This document shows positions 2,024 through 6,667 of a DNA stretch of 14,945 nucleotides, piece by piece (the stretch's first letter is position 1; every line of letters begins with the position of its first letter). Position numbers and translations under genes: made by a program. The notes below the pieces were generated by a model, which was not told the DNA's origin, did no database searches, and saw only the letters and a program-made list of their open reading frames with translations. This DNA is from a virus: positions 1-14,945 of the IMG/VR virus record IMGVR_UViG_3300001520_000028; one strand, given 5' to 3'.

Positions 2024-3496
2024 TTATATTGCTTGGACATATCTGTAATTAATAAAACCATAAATTTTATTATCTATACGAATATAATACCATGTTGTGC
2101 CATTGCTAGCTTGTATACTATCACAGACCTATACTATTTTATTCTTATAAATAATTGGAATACTCTTTAAAGTTTTATATTCAACACCTGCCCAACTTCT
2201 TACGTATAAAGCATTTGCTGTAACTTTAACTTTAAAATAATTATCACGGGCGGGAGATGCTTTACCTGTTCTAGTAAATGTAGTTTTAGATGTTGCTAAT
2301 AAAGTTTTATCATTATTAATATTTTTTGCGGGAGTTACCTTCTATTCTGTTTTAGGTGTAGTTTCCGCCTTCGCATATTTAGGAATAGCATAACCGCGAA
2401 TGTTACCATTAGCTACTTTTAAGGAGCGGCGCGCAACTACTCCGCTATTTCCTGTATTTCCTTCTATTGTAGTAATAGTATTGCCCGAAACTTTTTCAAC
2501 AATACCAATATGATCTGCAAAACCATCATTTGGTTGAGTACCATCATCCCAGTTATATGTTATAATCCATCCTGGCTGAGGAGTAACTGAACCATTTTCC
2601 TACCATATACCCGCTTTCTTAAATAATTGAATATGTCTTTCAACGCCACATTCTGTTCCACCAATTAAATCGACAGCATTATTTTTAATAAATGCCGCAG
2701 ATAATGTTGTATCACAATAGTCATCAGTATATTTAACTTTATAGCCAACCGCCAAAGGGGTATGACTATTATATAAATCAATTATATCTCTATGAGTTTG
2801 TTTAGCTTTACTCTTGCCAATCCAACCCTACATAGTTTTTATAATATCTTTTGCGGTAGTTCCTTTAGTTGGAATAGGAGTTGTAATAGGTCGTTCCTAT
2901 ACTTCTGCTCCATAAAAATAATTCATATCAACATTTCCAGAAATGCCGTTTACTTTTCCTTTGCTTGTATACTGTTGATAAGTACAAGGAAAATGAGGTT
3001 CAGGGTTATAATCTGCTAACCATACAATATATTTTTTAATAGTTGCCGCATCGTACCAATTTTTATAATAATCTTGATTTAAATAAAAACCAGCTTTGTA
3101 ACCTTTACTTTTGACGTAATCGCAAAAGGCATTTGTAAATTCGATACAATTTGTTTTAGTTAAATAAACCTTTTTATTTTTTGCGCTTTTTACGGTATCG
3201 TATTCAAAGTCATAAAATATAATAATATCTTTTCCTAGACCTGCGGCCTCCACATTTTTAATACAACTTTTTGCTTCTTCTACGGCATCGTTTTTATTTA
3301 AAGCATAAGCAAAATGATAAACTCCATGAATAGGGATTCCCGCCTATTTAAATTTTTTTACATTAGCGATAAAATATTTATCAATTGTTTTTCTGTATCC
3401 CTATCTAATAATAACAAAATCAATTCCTGATGTTTTTACTTTCTTAGCGTCAATATTACCTTGCCACTAAGAAATATCAATACCTTTTAATGCCAT
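2024..3496 (-). CDS. Modular endolysin of about 490 aa: GH25 muramidase, CHAP/NlpC-P60 peptidase and SH3b wall-binding domain. It contains 8 in-frame TAG sense codons.
   Basis: ATG at complement 3496-3494 with SD GAAAGGAGATAAT. N-terminus MALKGIDIS-TAG-WQGNIDAKKVKTSGIDFVIIR-TAG-GYRKTIDKYFIANVKKFK-TAG-AGIPIHGVYHFAYA... joins track ORF 2897-3253 (...GAEV). It continues past TAG 2897-2899 into ...GYKVKYTDDYCDTTLSAAFIKNNAVDLIGGTECG...ADHIGIVEKVSGNTITTIEGN (Cys/His peptidase), then ...ALYVRSWAGVEYKTLKSIPIIYKNKIV-TAG-VCDSIQASNGTTWYYIRIDNKIYGFINYRYVQAI (SH3b). The stop is TAA at complement 2026-2024. In-frame TAGs are at 3467, 3401, 3344, 2897, 2828, 2600, 2342 and 2129 (plus-strand start coordinate of each CTA). 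There is no in-frame TAA/TGA and no frameshift. Confidence 0.85.
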
Positions 3497-3510
3497 ATTA
3501 TCTCCTTTCA

Positions 3511-3545
3511 AAAAAAGAAGCGGTAGGATTAACCTACCGCTTCTT
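3511..3545 (-). terminator. Rho-independent terminator for minus-strand transcripts. It sits exactly at the holin stop codon, between the holin and the endolysin.
   Basis: The minus strand reads AAGAAGCGGTAGG-TTAAT-CCTACCGCTTCTT, a 13-bp stem with a 5-nt loop, followed by TTTTTT (plus-strand A6 at 3511-3516). The holin TAA (3529-3531) lies in the loop. The endolysin SD and ATG follow 14 nt later. Confidence 0.65.
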
Positions 3546-3747
3546 CAGAATCTTTAACTTCTGGAAGTCCAGCTAAACTAGTCATAATAGAAAGGAATCC
3601 TGCTACGCAAGCAACTGAACCAACATATGTCCAGTTAACTTCATTAATTGCGGCACCTACAGTTATCATAGAAACAAAAGACTGCGCAAAAGTCTTAATG
3701 GCTCTAATACCTGCTGCCTTAATCCATTTCTTTTGTTTTTCACTCAT
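3529..3747 (-). CDS. Holin, 72 aa. It has a small hydrophobic core and a charged C-terminus.
   Basis: Track ORF MSEKQKKWIKAAGIRAIKTFAQSFVSMITVGAAINEVNWTYVGSVACVAGFLSIMTSLAGLPEVKDSEEAVG. SD AAGGAGG lies 8 nt upstream. It sits directly 5' of the endolysin. The stop is TAA, with no TAG codons. Confidence 0.75.
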   Translation of the reverse strand: MSEKQKKWIKAAGIRAIKTFAQSFVSMITVGAAINEVNWTYVGSVACVAGFLSIMTSLAGLPEVKDSEEAVG

Positions 3748-3802: not shown

Positions 3803-4246
3803 TTACTTTTTTGACCTTTTTTCTTTTATTTGTTGTAAATGTTTTTTATTATCTTCAAGAGCACGATTAATTGATTCAATCCACCCCTCTAGATAATTAA
3901 TTCTTTTTTTATGGTATTTAGTCATAAAATGAAATCTTAATCGTATCGTTCTCATTATTAAATATTCATCATAAGAATTATCATGAATATTATTTATAAT
4001 ATCTTTGGTCATTCTTTCTATAGTATGAAGAATAATTTTTTCTCGTTTTAACTCATCTTTATAGGCTTTTCGCACAGCTTTCATTTCAGCTATACGTAAG
4101 CCGGTATATTTACTTTGAATTTCTTCGTCATCAGGATGAACTTTAGCAAATCCAGTATATGTTCCTCTTTTGGTTTTTACAGTAACAATAGATTTACCTG
4201 ATACAGGGTCAAAAACAGAATTAGAAAGTTTTACTCTTAGCTGCAT
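3803..4246 (-). CDS. Hypothetical protein, 147 aa.
   Basis: Track ORF with SD AAAGGAAATAAAG. Stop TAA, TAG-free. No recognisable domain. Confidence 0.6.
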   Translation of the reverse strand: MQLRVKLSNSVFDPVSGKSIVTVKTKRGTYTGFAKVHPDDEEIQSKYTGLRIAEMKAVRKAYKDELKREKIILHTIERMTKDIINNIHDNSYDEYLIMRTIRLRFHFMTKYHKKRINYLEGWIESINRALEDNKKHLQQIKEKRSKK

Positions 4247-4349
4247 CTTTATTTCCTTTCTTTTTTATAACGTAGTCTCTGATAATGATAATAGTCATTT
4301 CTACAAAAAGAGTTCCTACAATTCCTACAAGCACAGGATTTACAATCAT
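4221..4349 (-). CDS. Small single-pass membrane peptide, 42 aa.
   Basis: ATG at complement 4349-4347 in an ATGA overlap with the stop of the phosphoesterase gene, with SD AAGGAGAAGAAAGA. Translation is MIVNPVLVGIVGTLFVEMTIIIIRDYVIKKKGNKDAAKSKTF, a hydrophobic stretch followed by a basic tail. Stop TAA at 4221-4223. It overlaps the next gene's start by 26 nt. Confidence 0.4.
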   Translation of the reverse strand: MIVNPVLVGIVGTLFVEMTIIIIRDYVIKKKGNKDAAKSKTF

Positions 4350-4891
4350 TCTTTCTTCTCCTTATATTTATTAATATCTTTAATTATTTGCTCTATAGAT
4401 ACGGGATAACAATTATGAGCATCCATTGCTACATTATAAATACTATATTGTCCAAACTCAAATTTATTAGAACTATGAGTATGTCCAGATAAATTCCAGA
4501 AGAAACGCTCTTCCTCAAAATTACCTACAAGAGTAGGATAATGAGAAAGATAAAAAATTTTCTTTTTATTGTATTTATAAATTGAAGCAAAACCAAGATA
4601 TGTCATACCGTATTCTGTTTGATATTTATTAAGTTTATTATTTGTATCATGGTTCCCCCAAATAATAAATTTTTCACCATTTAATACTTTATAAACACGA
4701 TTCCATTCTTTCTCGTTTCCACTCATACAAAGGTCGCCAAGAATATAAACAGTATCTTCTGGAGTTACAATACTATTCCATCTTTTTAAGATTTCTGTGT
4801 CATGTTCTTCGATTGAAGAGAAACCGCGCGGGCGCCAGATAAAATCCTTATCGTGCCCGATATGGAGGTCTGAGGTAAAATAAACAGCCAT
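4346..4891 (-). CDS. Calcineurin-like metallophosphoesterase, 181 aa.
   Basis: Motifs DLHIGH, GDLCM, GNHD and GHTH are in the canonical order. Stop TGA. Adjacent to the kinase and the RNA ligase. Confidence 0.85.
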   Translation of the reverse strand: MAVYFTSDLHIGHDKDFIWRPRGFSSIEEHDTEILKRWNSIVTPEDTVYILGDLCMSGNEKEWNRVYKVLNGEKFIIWGNHDTNNKLNKYQTEYGMTYLGFASIYKYNKKKIFYLSHYPTLVGNFEEERFFWNLSGHTHSSNKFEFGQYSIYNVAMDAHNCYPVSIEQIIKDINKYKEKKE

Positions 4892-4892
4892 A

Positions 4893-5405
4893 TTATCTCC
4901 TTTCTAAAAGATTTATTGATTTTCCATCAAAAGTATATATATAGTCAAAAGGCTCATTGTAGGTTGGCGGTTCCATTCTAAGATACATATTATGTACTTC
5001 ATGCGGAGGCACAAAGGTGCGGCCGCCCTTTCTTGTTTCATTGCGTTCAAGACATGTTTCCAAAGGAAGATTCATATATACACCTATTACGGCTACTTTT
5101 GTTCTATCTATATGAAGATTATGAAAAAGAGCATTACGACTTTTTCTATTTAAATGTGTTGCATCTGCAATAACATTATAACCTTCTTTTAAATTTTCAT
5201 TAATTTGTCTAATAAATTCTTTATAAACTTGTTTTTCTTTTGCAAAATAATTATCTGTATCAGAAAGAAAAGCGAATCTTATCCCGTCTCTTGAAATATG
5301 GATAGTATTATCATTCATAATAGCATATTTTGCATAAGTAGATTTTCCTGAACCAGGAATACCTATCATAATATATAATTTATTTTTTTCCATTTTTTTC
5401 TCCAA
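4893..5405 (-). CDS. P-loop polynucleotide-kinase-like protein (T4 Pnk kinase-domain family), 170 aa.
   Basis: Walker A MIGIPGSGKSTYAKY and a downstream ISRDGIR motif match the T4 Pnk pattern GCPGSGKST...NRDDYR. SD GGAGAAAAAA. Stop TAA. Confidence 0.7.
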   Translation of the reverse strand: MEKKMEKNKLYIMIGIPGSGKSTYAKYAIMNDNTIHISRDGIRFAFLSDTDNYFAKEKQVYKEFIRQINENLKEGYNVIADATHLNRKSRNALFHNLHIDRTKVAVIGVYMNLPLETCLERNETRKGGRTFVPPHEVHNMYLRMEPPTYNEPFDYIYTFDGKSINLLERR

Positions 5406-5410
5406 AACGA

Positions 5411-5433
5411 GGGAGAGATAATCTCTCCCTCTA
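5411..5433 (-). promoter_or_regulatory. GC-rich perfect hairpin between the RNA ligase stop and the kinase SD.
   Basis: GAGGGAGAGA-TAA-TCTCTCCCTC: a 10-bp stem and 3-nt loop, followed on the minus strand by GUUUUGG. It stands out as very GC-rich in AT-rich DNA. Confidence 0.4.
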
Positions 5434-5440
5434 TTATTTA

Positions 5441-6667
5441 TTATCCGTGATAGGCAAGTAGAAATTCATTAGAAACAGCTTTAAAAGATTTGCTGCCATC
5501 TTCAGAACGGAATACAATACCTTCTCGCATATCACCATCAATTTGAGATTTATCTGTTGCGTATTCGAGTAACTCTTCTACTGTATCAGGAAGAATGAAC
5601 TTACTATCAACAACAGGGACGCAAGGAATCCGATAGTAATCTTCAAGTAATTCTCTCATTTTAAGAGTATTAAATCTTCCCTTATCAGAAATAATAAGGT
5701 TAAAAGCCATAAAATCATGTCCTTTAAGATGATAATCTCTTTTTTGTACACCTGCGCCATAGGTTTCACCCTGGATAGTAATCCATTCTGCGGCTGGGAA
5801 TAATGTCAGCATTTCAGTTAGAACATGTTCAATATGGTATTTTTCTGCCATCTCTGTATAGATATTAGTTTCATAAAAACATGTTTTATCAGGCTTATCA
5901 AAGCAGACGTTACGAGAACAAACATAAAACTCATTTTTACGAGGCCACTTCCCGCGTTTAATAGTAAAGGTAGTAGAAGAGCCATCAATCTTTTCTGTTG
6001 CAATCCAAGGGTTTTTATCTTCAAGAATCCAAGGTATATTTTGAACTCTTTCTTCATCAGTTTTCTTTACCCAAGCAGGCCAACCAGTTTTATCTCTCTT
6101 TTTACCGAAGAAAATGAAAAGAAATTTCTTTCCCCATTCCCGCTTCATAAGCCAGCGGAAAGGTTGCTTTGCAAAGAGTTTACCATTACGCTGTGCCATT
6201 TTCTTATATTTATCTACAGAAGGTGCTTTACGAGTATTATCTTCTGCGATATAGTAAGTTACACCAAGCTGTTTAGTAAGAAAACGAGAGTCATTCCCAG
6301 CATTGTGCTCAACCCCGTTAGAGTCATGAATAGAATAACCATAATTATGATTCTCAATAGTCCAATTAAGATTGGCAGCAGATATAAGTAAACCTTGACT
6401 TAATGATTTACACATTTTCTGAGTTTTAATCTTATATTTCTTCTTAGCAAGAAACTCCATATCAGTAAAAGGTTTTACTTCAGGAAGCTTTGAGTCAATC
6501 TCAAAGTAAATAGCGGGGTCGCCTACTTTAAATTCACCTTTACCGACAACGATAGTCCACCCGCCAACATGAGCAAGTTCTACTCTATCATATCCTTCGA
6601 TTGGAGTAATGTTATCAATAGTTACAACATATGCAAGTTCTCTTTCGTTAGTTTTTGGATTAAGCAT
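5441..6667 (-). CDS. ATP-dependent RNA ligase, 408 aa. It has a DraRnl/NgrRnl-type (Rnl5-like) N-terminal domain and a KxDG nucleotidyltransferase motif.
   Basis: N-terminus ELAYVVTIDNITPIEGYDRVELAHVGGWTIVVGKGEFKVGDPAIYFEIDSKLP matches the OB-like N-domain of D. radiodurans-type RNA ligases. The lysine-adenylation motif is TEKIDGSSTTF. Stop TAA. The start overlaps the upstream ORF by 8 nt. Confidence 0.7.
   Translation of the reverse strand: MLNPKTNERELAYVVTIDNITPIEGYDRVELAHVGGWTIVVGKGEFKVGDPAIYFEIDSKLPEVKPFTDMEFLAKKKYKIKTQKMCKSLSQGLLISAANLNWTIENHNYGYSIHDSNGVEHNAGNDSRFLTKQLGVTYYIAEDNTRKAPSVDKYKKMAQRNGKLFAKQPFRWLMKREWGKKFLFIFFGKKRDKTGWPAWVKKTDEERVQNIPWILEDKNPWIATEKIDGSSTTFTIKRGKWPRKNEFYVCSRNVCFDKPDKTCFYETNIYTEMAEKYHIEHVLTEMLTLFPAAEWITIQGETYGAGVQKRDYHLKGHDFMAFNLIISDKGRFNTLKMRELLEDYYRIPCVPVVDSKFILPDTVEELLEYATDKSQIDGDMREGIVFRSEDGSKSFKAVSNEFLLAYHG

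Follow-up and report, generated by a model that had tools for sequence, protein, structure and literature searches.

Three consecutive, tightly spaced minus-strand genes of a rumen phage, in which the TAG stop codon is read as an amino acid, encode an RNA ligase, a P-loop kinase, and a metallophosphoesterase, and the trio probably (with a probability of about 0.6) constitutes a split pathway in which three separate polypeptides would heal and seal the ends of broken RNA. The window, that is, the whole stretch of DNA analysed, comprises 14,945 nucleotides of the IMG/VR record IMGVR_UViG_3300001520_000028; in its full length it had no megablast match among cultured phages. The three enzyme classes, the Rnl5 type of the ligase, and the gene arrangement had been proposed in a sequence-only reading, whose coordinates were reproduced (the open frame of the kinase being 4893..5405). 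Matches in Pfam, PHROG, PDB, NCBIfam, and Foldseek agree with these assignments, and the AAA_33/polynucleotide kinase (PNK), Metallophos, and RNA_ligase families, which that reading had named for searching, were all matched.

Table 1. Features of the module and its flanks (positions in the window).
Feature	Positions	Strand	Basis
Rnl5-type ATP-dependent RNA ligase (predicted), 408 aa	5441..6667	-	PF21189, PF09414, NgrRnl match
Stand-alone polynucleotide 5'-kinase-type P-loop kinase (predicted), 166 aa	4893..5393	-	AAA_33, phrog_505, Pnkp1/CthPnk
Small binuclear metallophosphoesterase, aq_1665 type, 181 aa	4346..4891	-	Metallophos, phrog_547, motifs
10-bp GC-rich hairpin	5409..5431	-	Terminator-like scan and fold
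111-aa ORF upstream of ligase	6660..6995	-	ORF call; 8-nt overlap of its stop with the ligase start
Strong intrinsic-terminator-like hairpin, 15 pairs and T-run	7612..7647	-	Terminator-like scan

Judged from its sequence, the ligase is a member of the Rnl5 (DraRnl/NgrRnl-like) ATP-dependent RNA ligases. It matches Pfam RNA_ligase (PF09414) above the gathering score (7.7e-21), its N-domain matches the PHA02142 OB-fold family (PF21189; 6.8e-19, 68.6 bits with a cutoff of 27), and in PHROG it is assigned to phrog_968 “RNA ligase” (2e-64; a profile of 398 positions). The best Foldseek match is the Naegleria gruberi RNA ligase (NgrRnl; 1e-19), the structure of which (5cot) is also aligned over both domains in two stretches (7.8e-32). 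The NCBIfam model TIGR02306 (RNA_lig_DRB0094) likewise aligns in two segments, with the longer linker of the phage ligase between them, and since the score of 113.6 bits is under the equivalog cutoff of 151.15 the protein is a family-level relative and not an equivalog. The OB domain occupies approximately residues 9–96, the linker approximately 97–195 (about 60 residues longer than in NgrRnl), and the nucleotidyltransferase domain 196–404, while the NgrRnl alignment reaches residue 403 of 408, leaving no C-terminal appendage. Motif I (KxDG) is K226-I-D228-G, and residues R9, D58, R207, K226, D228, E301, E382, and K396 correspond to NgrRnl R4, D53, R149, K170, D172, E227, E312, and K326, respectively, whose roles have been described (PMC7261155); in 75 relatives R9 is at least 90% conserved and all the others at least 98%. 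The equivalent of NgrRnl Lys121 falls in the longer linker, where it is unmappable and the AF2 pLDDT is below 50, the AF2 model as a whole having a pLDDT of 62 and being poor outside the nucleotidyltransferase domain. The ligase family is spread over at least 8000 protein clusters in metagenomes and 332 records in cultured phages, where the closest homologues are at most 31% identical, and three cultured-phage ligase neighbourhoods inspected contained no annotated kinase or phosphoesterase.

The physiological substrates and role of Rnl5 enzymes are still called “uncharted.” As a family they are Mn-dependent sealers of 3'-OH/5'-PO4 nicks. The characterised members act on nicked duplexes whose 3'-OH strand is RNA and have little activity on single-stranded RNA, the stem-loop (tRNA) ligases being Rnl1 and Rnl4 (PMC4408790), and both DraRnl and NgrRnl tolerate DNA as the 5'-phosphate strand and as the template (PMC5397189, PMC4408790). 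The sole demonstrated physiological role is in the recovery of D. radiodurans from ionising radiation by genome reassembly, which is slower after DraRnl loss (PMC5397189).

The kinase appears to have its nearest relatives in the kinase modules of bacterial Pnkp1/Pnkp and of phage PNKs. It matches Pfam AAA_33 (5.4e-19) and phrog_505 “polynucleotide kinase” (5e-24, 86 bits), and its best solved relatives are Pnkp1 (4xrp; 1.7e-10, 44 bits) and the C. thermocellum Pnkp kinase (CthPnk, 4gp7; 4e-7, 33 bits), with PSTK at 28 and T4 PNK at 21 bits. In NCBIfam PSTK (55.7 bits) outscores Pnkp (42.8 bits), both being far under their cutoffs, and two tRNA-directed P-loop enzymes, PSTK (TIGR03574, 4.8e-15) and KTI12 (2e-10), are also matched; the genomic context favours the PNK identity. 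At sub-family level there are matches to Zeta_toxin (32.8 bits), HMUDK (25 bits, below cutoff), and thymidylate kinase, and according to these weaker or sub-threshold scores the zeta-toxin, dNMP-kinase, and 5-hmdU-kinase identities were judged unlikely.

For T4 Pnkp the roles of the acceptor-site Asp and Arg are established. The PNK acceptor site consists of the Asp (general base) and the Arg of a D-x-x-R motif (PMC3902929). The phage kinase carries a P-loop of the GxxxxGK[ST] pattern (G11-I-P-G-S-G-K17-S-T) and an acceptor-site segment S34-R-D36-G-I-R39, which aligns with SSDfcR of CthPnk and NRDdfR of Pnkp1, and residues G11, G14, G16, K17, S34, R35, D36, and R39 are at least 98% conserved among 57 relatives of 25–96% identity. 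Its open frame extends up to a TTG at 5405; the true start is likely the ATG at 5393, which has GGAG 6 nt upstream, and the public gene call also gives 166 aa, a length in which no second domain and no HAD match was found. In cultured phages 308 records match the kinase, with homologues annotated as PNK/PseT and adjoining RNA ligases; the nearest homologues are bifunctional Pnkp enzymes directly beside RNA ligases. No “Rosetta stone” fusion of this kinase with an aq_1665-type phosphoesterase was found, the best 120 homologues being all stand-alone, while the fusions present in cultured phages and in the related locus L048 are kinase-HD or kinase-HAD, never kinase-metallophosphoesterase.

The third protein belongs to the calcineurin-like binuclear metallophosphoesterase superfamily, since it possesses all the metal-binding motifs (D8xH10, G52D53, G79N80H81, H117, and G136H137xH139) and has Aquifex aeolicus aq_1665 (1xm7) as its closest fold, with matches to Metallophos (1.7e-08) and phrog_547 (4e-46). 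It is of the aq_1665 type and not a Pnkp/lambda-type phosphatase; its nearest characterised structural neighbours are LpxH, the P. putida MPE (an ssDNA endonuclease), and generic phosphodiesterases, not the Pnkp phosphatase, and BLASTP against the Pnkp of phage pW2 gave no match. Healing plus sealing, as proposed earlier, is a reasonable assignment, the nearest cultured-phage homologues of the kinase being Pnkp enzymes beside RNA ligases; the putative role of the phosphoesterase as 2',3'-cyclic phosphodiesterase/3'-phosphatase is suggested by its position beside the kinase. Most phage members of phrog_547 adjoin neither ligase nor kinase. With 1659 cultured-phage records this family is far wider than that of the ligase or of the kinase, which counts against a pathway.

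The kinase stop and the phosphoesterase start are separated by 1 nt, and the Shine-Dalgarno sequence of the phosphoesterase sits within the 3' end of the kinase gene, the two genes being translationally coupled in this phage. The ligase stop lies 35–47 nt from the start of the kinase, and the interval is filled by the shorter hairpin, GAGGGAGAGA-uua-UCUCUCCCUC followed by GUUUUGG (fold −18 kcal/mol, z = −2.6). Hairpins of other sequences are found at the same place in relatives L004–L013 and L028, some with clear T-runs, and the hairpin probably serves in RNA stability or as a partial terminator. The stronger hairpin, placed after a vault-like gene, is the upstream limit of the transcription unit containing the module. 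A possible fourth gene of this unit is the 111-aa ORF, which had no Pfam, PHROG, or PADLOC match and is found immediately upstream of the ligase in 11 of 80 relatives at 44–74% identity. PADLOC on the window yielded nothing relevant, the kinase giving a weak VakA match.

Linkage was followed in 80 related IMG/VR phage loci. Both kinase and phosphoesterase are on the ligase strand in 63 of them, and in 41 the three genes directly follow one another as ligase > kinase > phosphoesterase. Kinase or phosphoesterase matches lie 7–9 kb upstream of the ligase in 7 loci, the pair being adjacent in 6 (the exception is L047), and in 13 loci the pair lies 1–8 kb downstream, adjacent except in L052, L055, L067, L083, and L074 (the last classed as “other”), where the two genes are 0.6–1.1 kb apart. 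The kinase-phosphoesterase adjacency survives several independent rearrangements relative to the ligase in most loci with both genes, the two proteins diverge to 25–45% identity across these loci, and the catalytic motifs of the trio are invariant in 57–75 diverged relatives. The ligase without the pair is found in 9 loci having at least 3 kb of downstream flank, and these loci, together with the hairpin and the 7–9 kb separations, indicate that the ligase and the healing pair are not obligately coupled. In the close relative L048 the ligase is followed by a gene for a fused kinase-HD protein, the type of Pnkp known from Bacillus phages, which shows how readily the 3'-end healing module is exchanged.

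In the proposed pathway the kinase would phosphorylate the 5'-OH end, the metallophosphoesterase would strip a 2',3'-cyclic or 3'-phosphate to give a 3'-OH, and the ligase would self-adenylylate at K226, transfer AMP to the 5'-phosphate, and seal the break. Because the ligase is of Rnl5 type, sealing would be most likely where both ends are held in a duplex or structured context rather than in a free loop, and the candidate sites include tRNA or rRNA stems, guide:target duplexes, and RNA:DNA hybrids. The likely purpose would be to reverse damage by metal-independent ribonucleases of the host (or of a competitor) in the course of infection. Also in favour of the pathway, the phage encodes a separate NAD-dependent DNA ligase just beyond the window edge, so that ordinary DNA nick sealing is provided for. 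Such substrates and such a target are, like this division of labour and the part given to the phosphoesterase, putative.

The alternative that survives best, itself unlikely, is that the module heals and seals nicks of phage DNA with ribonucleotides on the 3' side, for example, 2',3'-cyclic phosphate/5'-OH breaks at embedded ribonucleotides, RNA-patched gaps, or primer junctions. PNK-type kinases also phosphorylate DNA 5'-OH ends, as established for T4 Pnkp. GyrB-like, GyrA-like, and NAD-dependent DNA ligase genes are found on the same strand 3–10 kb from the module, and the acceptance of a DNA 5'-phosphate strand and template by DraRnl and NgrRnl, as well as the delayed reassembly on DraRnl loss, fit this explanation (PMC5397189, PMC4408790). 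However, the immediate neighbours of the module are a vault-like protein, small ORFs without assignment, and a lysis cassette, replication genes being absent there; the closest cultured-phage homologues of the kinase lie beside Rnl1-type RNA ligases; and the PdeM match is far under the cutoff (24 versus 150 bits).

Next in order, and also improbable, is the absence of any pathway, the genes being neighbours by descent, with a general phosphoesterase acting on nucleotide signals or other phosphoesters, a kinase with a non-polynucleotide or DNA-modification substrate (zeta-toxin-like, dNMP kinase, or 5-hmdU DNA kinase), and a ligase working alone. The breadth of phrog_547, the Pakpunaviruses, in which ligase and phosphoesterase are both present but about 40 kb apart, the Zeta_toxin, HMUDK, and thymidylate kinase matches, the hairpin between the ligase and the pair, and the ligase-only loci are consistent with it. 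Despite these points, the kinase and the phosphoesterase stay together through rearrangements in most loci with both genes and are translationally coupled here, the PNK Asp-x-x-Arg acceptor-site motif is at least 98% conserved, the best solved relatives of the kinase are RNA-repair kinases, and in L048 a kinase-HD Pnkp takes the kinase position.

The recoding of the phage, as claimed in the sequence-only reading, is confirmed: with TAG as a sense codon, fragments fuse into ORFs of 962, 388, and 507 aa with 22, 8, and 8 TAGs, respectively. At their rate of about 2% the trio should contain approximately 15 TAGs, yet its 755 codons include none in frame, so that the claim of a TAG-free module also stands. 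TAG is equally absent from the holin, from the GyrB-like and vault-like genes, and from all the small ORFs nearby. The whole non-late gene set of the window has this property, and the standard code suffices to translate the module, as it does all other non-late genes of the phage. Most relatives with the same set are recoded; the comparison of module with recoding covered 5–17 kb per relative, where recoding is visible in late genes only, so locally “standard” loci are uninformative, and function and shared ancestry cannot be separated by it.

The least probable reading is the one, put forward in the sequence-only reading, that ties the module to recoding, namely, T4-like anticodon-loop repair against PrrC/RloC-type nucleases, guarding host tRNAs or the phage's own UAG-suppressor tRNA. 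In its favour are the match of the three activities with the T4 Pnkp/Rnl1 pathway (PMC1920235), the genuine TAG recoding of the phage together with its TAG-free module, the resemblance of the kinase to PSTK and KTI12, the arrays of 10–12 tRNA genes some 2.5 kb downstream of the phosphoesterase in the distant relatives L054 and L075, and, in the ligase-only locus L057, a CTA-anticodon tRNA some 7 kb upstream of the ligase. However, anticodon-loop repair is not the default expectation for Rnl5 enzymes, which, as far as tested, need nicked duplexes, unlike the stem-loop ligases Rnl1 and Rnl4 (PMC4408790); no tRNA or Rfam RNA was found in the window, and scans of the 27 closest relatives revealed no tRNA next to the module; TAG-freeness does not single the module out; the TGA-recoded-looking L030/L031, L072, and L077 of the same ligase clade and several TAG-recoded relatives are without the pair nearby; analogous ligase and Pnkp modules occur in cultured phages without known recoding; and the literature search found no paper linking recoded phages with RNA repair. 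On present evidence the module gives no information on how or why the phage recodes TAG.

Returning to the split RNA-repair pathway, it is a rather unlikely, speculative extension that the Rnl5 ligase performs the sealing step of a pathway dedicated to counter-defence, which would repair breaks within duplex RNA, such as those in guide:target-cut phage transcripts, in rRNA or tRNA stems attacked by ribotoxins, or in a cut suppressor tRNA. [quoted passage not shown] The late genes, in such a setting, depend on the suppressor tRNA. If true, this large clade of rumen phages would provide the first natural context defining what Rnl5 enzymes repair.

Phage RNA repair is a classic counter-defence, in which T4 Pnkp and Rnl1 act against the PrrC nuclease, and the known phage versions employ Rnl1, Rnl2, or RtcB ligases with a HAD or HD phosphatase fused to the kinase. 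While phage RNA repair is thus already known, the present combination differs from these versions, the known repair logic being assembled from different parts: an Rnl5 nick sealer, a kinase of minimal size, and an aq_1665-type metallophosphoesterase, the last two both stand-alone. Their linkage would give a testable function to the Rnl5 ligases as well as to the aq_1665/phrog_547 phosphoesterases. The ligase shares with DraRnl and NgrRnl the N-terminal OB and C-terminal nucleotidyltransferase domains without a C-terminal appendage but has 408 aa instead of about 340, a length typical of phrog_968, and is operon-linked to end-healing enzymes, which is undescribed for them in the literature consulted. 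As in the bacterial Pnkp and Pnkp1 systems, kinase, metallophosphoesterase, and ATP-dependent ligase activities are co-encoded, and a split precedent exists in Pnkp1-Rnl-Hen1, where the ligase is likewise a separate polypeptide (PMC4411300). The bacterial Pnkp, in contrast, is one polypeptide with a lambda-phosphatase-type phosphoesterase and an Rnl4 ligase, whereas the phage has three separate proteins with an aq_1665-type phosphoesterase and an Rnl5 ligase, and no Hen1 methyltransferase was detected among the module neighbours; the module was accordingly not classed as a bacterial Pnkp/Pnkp-Hen1 system. Nor was it placed in the T4-type Pnkp/Rnl1 pathway, the kinase being unfused and the ligase matching PF09414/PF21189 instead of RNA_lig_T4_1. 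With the T4 and Bacillus-phage pairs it shares the repair logic and a homologous kinase, but in those phages the kinase carries the 3'-healing module as a fused HAD or HD domain and the ligase is an Rnl1 stem-loop sealer, and here the corresponding parts are a separate metallophosphoesterase and an Rnl5 nick sealer. A comparative study of jumbo-phage genomes records a few phages in which calcineurin-like and HD phosphatases occur together with PNK and RNA ligases (PMC7824862). The Bacillus phages pW2 and PK-3 have an Rnl1-type RNA ligase gene followed by a kinase-HD protein, in the same order as here, in phage G the kinase-HD protein precedes the RNA ligase, and T4-like phages have the kinase-HAD PseT. 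According to these arrangements and that of L048, members of one kinase family have been combined time and again with a ligase and one or another 3'-phosphohydrolase.

The RNA ligase of the three-gene module matches the Pfam RNA_ligase domain and the PHA02142 OB-fold N-domain, both over threshold. In a phmmer search of the PDB its sole match was the Naegleria gruberi RNA ligase (NgrRnl; 7.8e-32, two stretches, both domains covered), and Foldseek with a mediocre AF2 model placed NgrRnl first (1e-19) and Rnl2 far behind (4e-8). The NgrRnl residues described by the Shuman laboratory as ATP- and metal-binding (R4, D53, R149, K170, D172, E227, E312, and K326; PMC7261155) correspond to R9, D58, R207, K226, D228, E301, E382, and K396 of the phage protein. 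Among 75 non-identical relatives (59–94% identity) R9 is at least 90% conserved and the other seven are at least 98% conserved. The phage enzyme has no C-terminal appendage. A longer, partly conserved linker adds about 70 residues relative to NgrRnl, which gives a length typical for the phage family phrog_968 and probably accounts for an NCBIfam equivalog score (113.6) under the cutoff of 151. According to these data the Rnl5-type assignment of the sequence-only reading was upheld, and we file the protein as a phage subtype of the Rnl5 family.

The kinase, previously named as Pnk-like, matches AAA_33 (69 bits). Among solved structures it comes closest to the kinase modules of two proteins of RNA repair, Pnkp1 (1.7e-10) and C. 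thermocellum Pnkp (4e-7); PSTK and T4 PNK rank next. Across 57 relatives diverging down to 25% identity, conservation is 98% or more for the P-loop and for an S-R-D-x-x-R segment, whose aligned counterpart in polynucleotide kinases holds the acceptor-site Asp and Arg. Its cultured-phage homologues are bifunctional, are annotated as polynucleotide kinase or PseT, and often adjoin an RNA ligase: an Rnl1-type ligase precedes a kinase-HD protein in Bacillus phages pW2 and PK-3, a kinase-HD protein precedes an RNA ligase in phage G, and T4-like phages encode a kinase-HAD protein. Together the solved relatives, the conserved acceptor motif, and these homologues make the predicted role of polynucleotide 5'-kinase likely, while the zeta-toxin, dNMP-kinase, and 5-hmdU-kinase readings scored lower.

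In the third protein every metal-ligand motif of metallophosphoesterases is present and invariant and the AF2 model is confident (pLDDT 90), so the class proposed earlier stands. The profile search gave one significant solved relative, Aquifex aq_1665 (1e-17), which has no assigned function, and then GpdQ (4e-4). The family, phrog_547, matched 1659 cultured-phage records; the ligase matched 332 and the kinase 308. Since neither the solved relatives nor the family revealed a substrate, the role of 2',3'-phosphatase, proposed for the enzyme from the position of its gene, is putative.

The gene arrangement was compared in 80 IMG/VR loci found with the ligase (57–95% identity, contigs up to 240 kb). 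The sequence-only reading had proposed a check for the same trio in recoded phage relatives; 63 of these loci have both kinase and phosphoesterase in the flanking DNA scanned and on the strand of the ligase. The contiguous order ligase, kinase, phosphoesterase is kept in 41 of the 80; the pair lies 1–8 kb downstream of the ligase in 13, matches to kinase or phosphoesterase are found 7–9 kb upstream in 7, and 9 loci with sufficient flank contain the ligase without the pair. The kinase-phosphoesterase gap is typically 5–60 nt with a few exceptions, namely, about 0.6 kb in L052 and L083, a 1.1-kb insertion in L055, L067, and L074, and L047, where the phosphoesterase adjoins the ligase and the kinase is located elsewhere. 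Because this adjacency outlasts several rearrangements and divergence to 25–45% identity, we take it as evidence that kinase and phosphoesterase are functionally coupled beyond inherited order. In L048 (ligase identity 64%) the kinase carries an HD phosphohydrolase domain in the same polypeptide, an example of end-healing module swap; a much more divergent metallophosphoesterase follows the fusion. Directly upstream of the kinase 43 relatives encode a 95-aa Cys-rich protein (CxxC...CxxC) that travels with it, has no match in Pfam, and is not found in the window or its closest relatives. All close relatives have a hairpin after the ligase stop, differing in sequence and with a clear T-run in some; ligase and healing pair therefore probably form semi-independent transcription units.

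Features of the window and of related loci
Feature	Coordinates	Strand	Remark
185-aa ORF		-	First in minus-strand run, upstream of vault-like gene
Vault-protein-like gene, 833 aa	7655..10156	-	PF11978, 1e-21
Strong terminator-like hairpin	7647..7612	-	Between vault-like gene and small ORFs
Small ORFs		-	Between this hairpin and 111-aa ORF
111-aa ORF		-	Directly before ligase
Ligase	6667..5441	-	
Hairpin	5409..5431	-	Between ligase and kinase
Kinase	5393..4893	-	
Phosphoesterase	4891..4346	-	
Hydrophobic ORF, 42 aa, MIVNPVLVGIVGTLFVEMTIIII...	4221..4349	-	Gene call in public assembly
147-aa ORF		-	Between 42-aa ORF and holin
r1t-type holin	3529..3747	-	
GH25+CHAP endolysin, 507 aa	2024..3544	-	
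GyrB-like gene		-	Last of minus-strand run, after endolysin
GyrB-like (630 aa), GyrA-like (778 aa), NAD-dependent DNA ligase (678 aa)	L089 (source contig of the window) 15082..21227	Same	Past low-coordinate end of the window
Kinase-HD fusion, 313 aa	L048 9595..10536		
Divergent metallophosphoesterase	L048 10932..11480		After the fusion
95-aa Cys-rich protein, examples	L015 2189..2485; L020 9577..9861		
Arrays of 10-12 tRNAs	L054 13643..16454; L075 13400..17145		About 2.5 kb downstream of phosphoesterase
tRNA with CTA anticodon (amber suppressor)	L057 1079..1165		ARAGORN call: tRNA-Pyl

The phage segment in the window has a GC content of 30%, and the module belongs to a minus-strand gene run from 10755 down to 3. 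The start codon of the 42-aa hydrophobic ORF overlaps the phosphoesterase stop (ATGA). The vault-like protein, an uncommon thing in phage, combines the major-vault-protein shoulder domain with a vault repeat, an SPFH/Band-7 match, and a long C-terminal coiled coil; its gene is TAG-free, PHROG and PADLOC searches gave no match, and many loci of related phages keep it upstream of their ligase (40–100% identity).

Reading TAG as sense joins broken frames into ORFs of 962 aa (10909..13794, 22 TAG), 388 aa (13781..14944, 8 TAG), and 507 aa (the endolysin, 8 TAG), while TGA as sense gives no comparable ORF gain in the window. The module is indeed TAG-free, as had been claimed, with 0 in-frame TAG in 755 codons against about 15 expected at the late-gene rate, but every other non-late gene of the window is TAG-free as well, so this property marks membership in the standard-code-readable class and nothing more specific. 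In relatives the three genes, wherever complete, are likewise uninterrupted under the standard code. In the lysis cassette (2024..3747, minus strand) the holin is TAG-free, and thus the adjoining endolysin alone would need TAG suppression. The GH25+CHAP make-up of the endolysin and the r1t type of the holin point to a Gram-positive host. Four loci of the same ligase clade (L030, L031, L072, and L077) have higher GC (0.39–0.41) and their ORF coverage rises with TGA, not TAG, as sense, which suggests that stop-codon reassignments differ among related phages.

In the mechanism proposed for the module the kinase would generate a 5'-phosphate and the phosphoesterase a 3'-OH at a break, and the ligase would seal it via lysyl-AMP (K226) and an App-RNA intermediate. 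Characterised Rnl5 enzymes require a nicked duplex whose 3'-OH side contributes at least 2 ribonucleotides, and they act poorly on single strands, while the stem-loop sealers are Rnl1 and Rnl4 (PMC4408790, PMC5397189); sealing by the phage ligase would therefore be expected in a base-paired context. In view of the Deinococcus result, a role on the DNA side is a real rival to RNA repair; however, the phage encodes its own NAD-dependent DNA ligase outside the window. The suggested tie to recoding is speculation for which no support was found: no tRNA is present in the window or adjoins the module in the close relatives scanned, the four TGA-looking relatives and several TAG-recoded ones have the ligase and no pair in the flank scanned, and no literature linking recoded phages with RNA repair was found. 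Only two distant relatives (L054 and L075) have a tRNA array near the module, and in the ligase-only locus L057 a CTA-anticodon tRNA belongs to an array of 12 tRNAs that lies 7 kb upstream of the ligase.

The trio offers a concrete setting in which the so far uncharted physiological role of Rnl5 ligases, and that of phrog_547, a phosphoesterase family very common in phages, could be tested. The concept of phage polynucleotide kinase, phosphoesterase, and ATP-dependent RNA ligase acting jointly is already established; in a jumbo-phage survey the usual HAD domain was occasionally replaced by calcineurin-like or HD phosphatases (PMC7824862), and bacteria possess the split Pnkp1-Rnl-Hen1 system (PMC4411300). 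In contrast to the known RNA-repair systems, the sealing enzyme here is an Rnl5 ligase, the three activities reside in fully separate proteins, the healing position is occupied by an aq_1665-type phosphoesterase, and the arrangement is abundant within a clade of large rumen phages.
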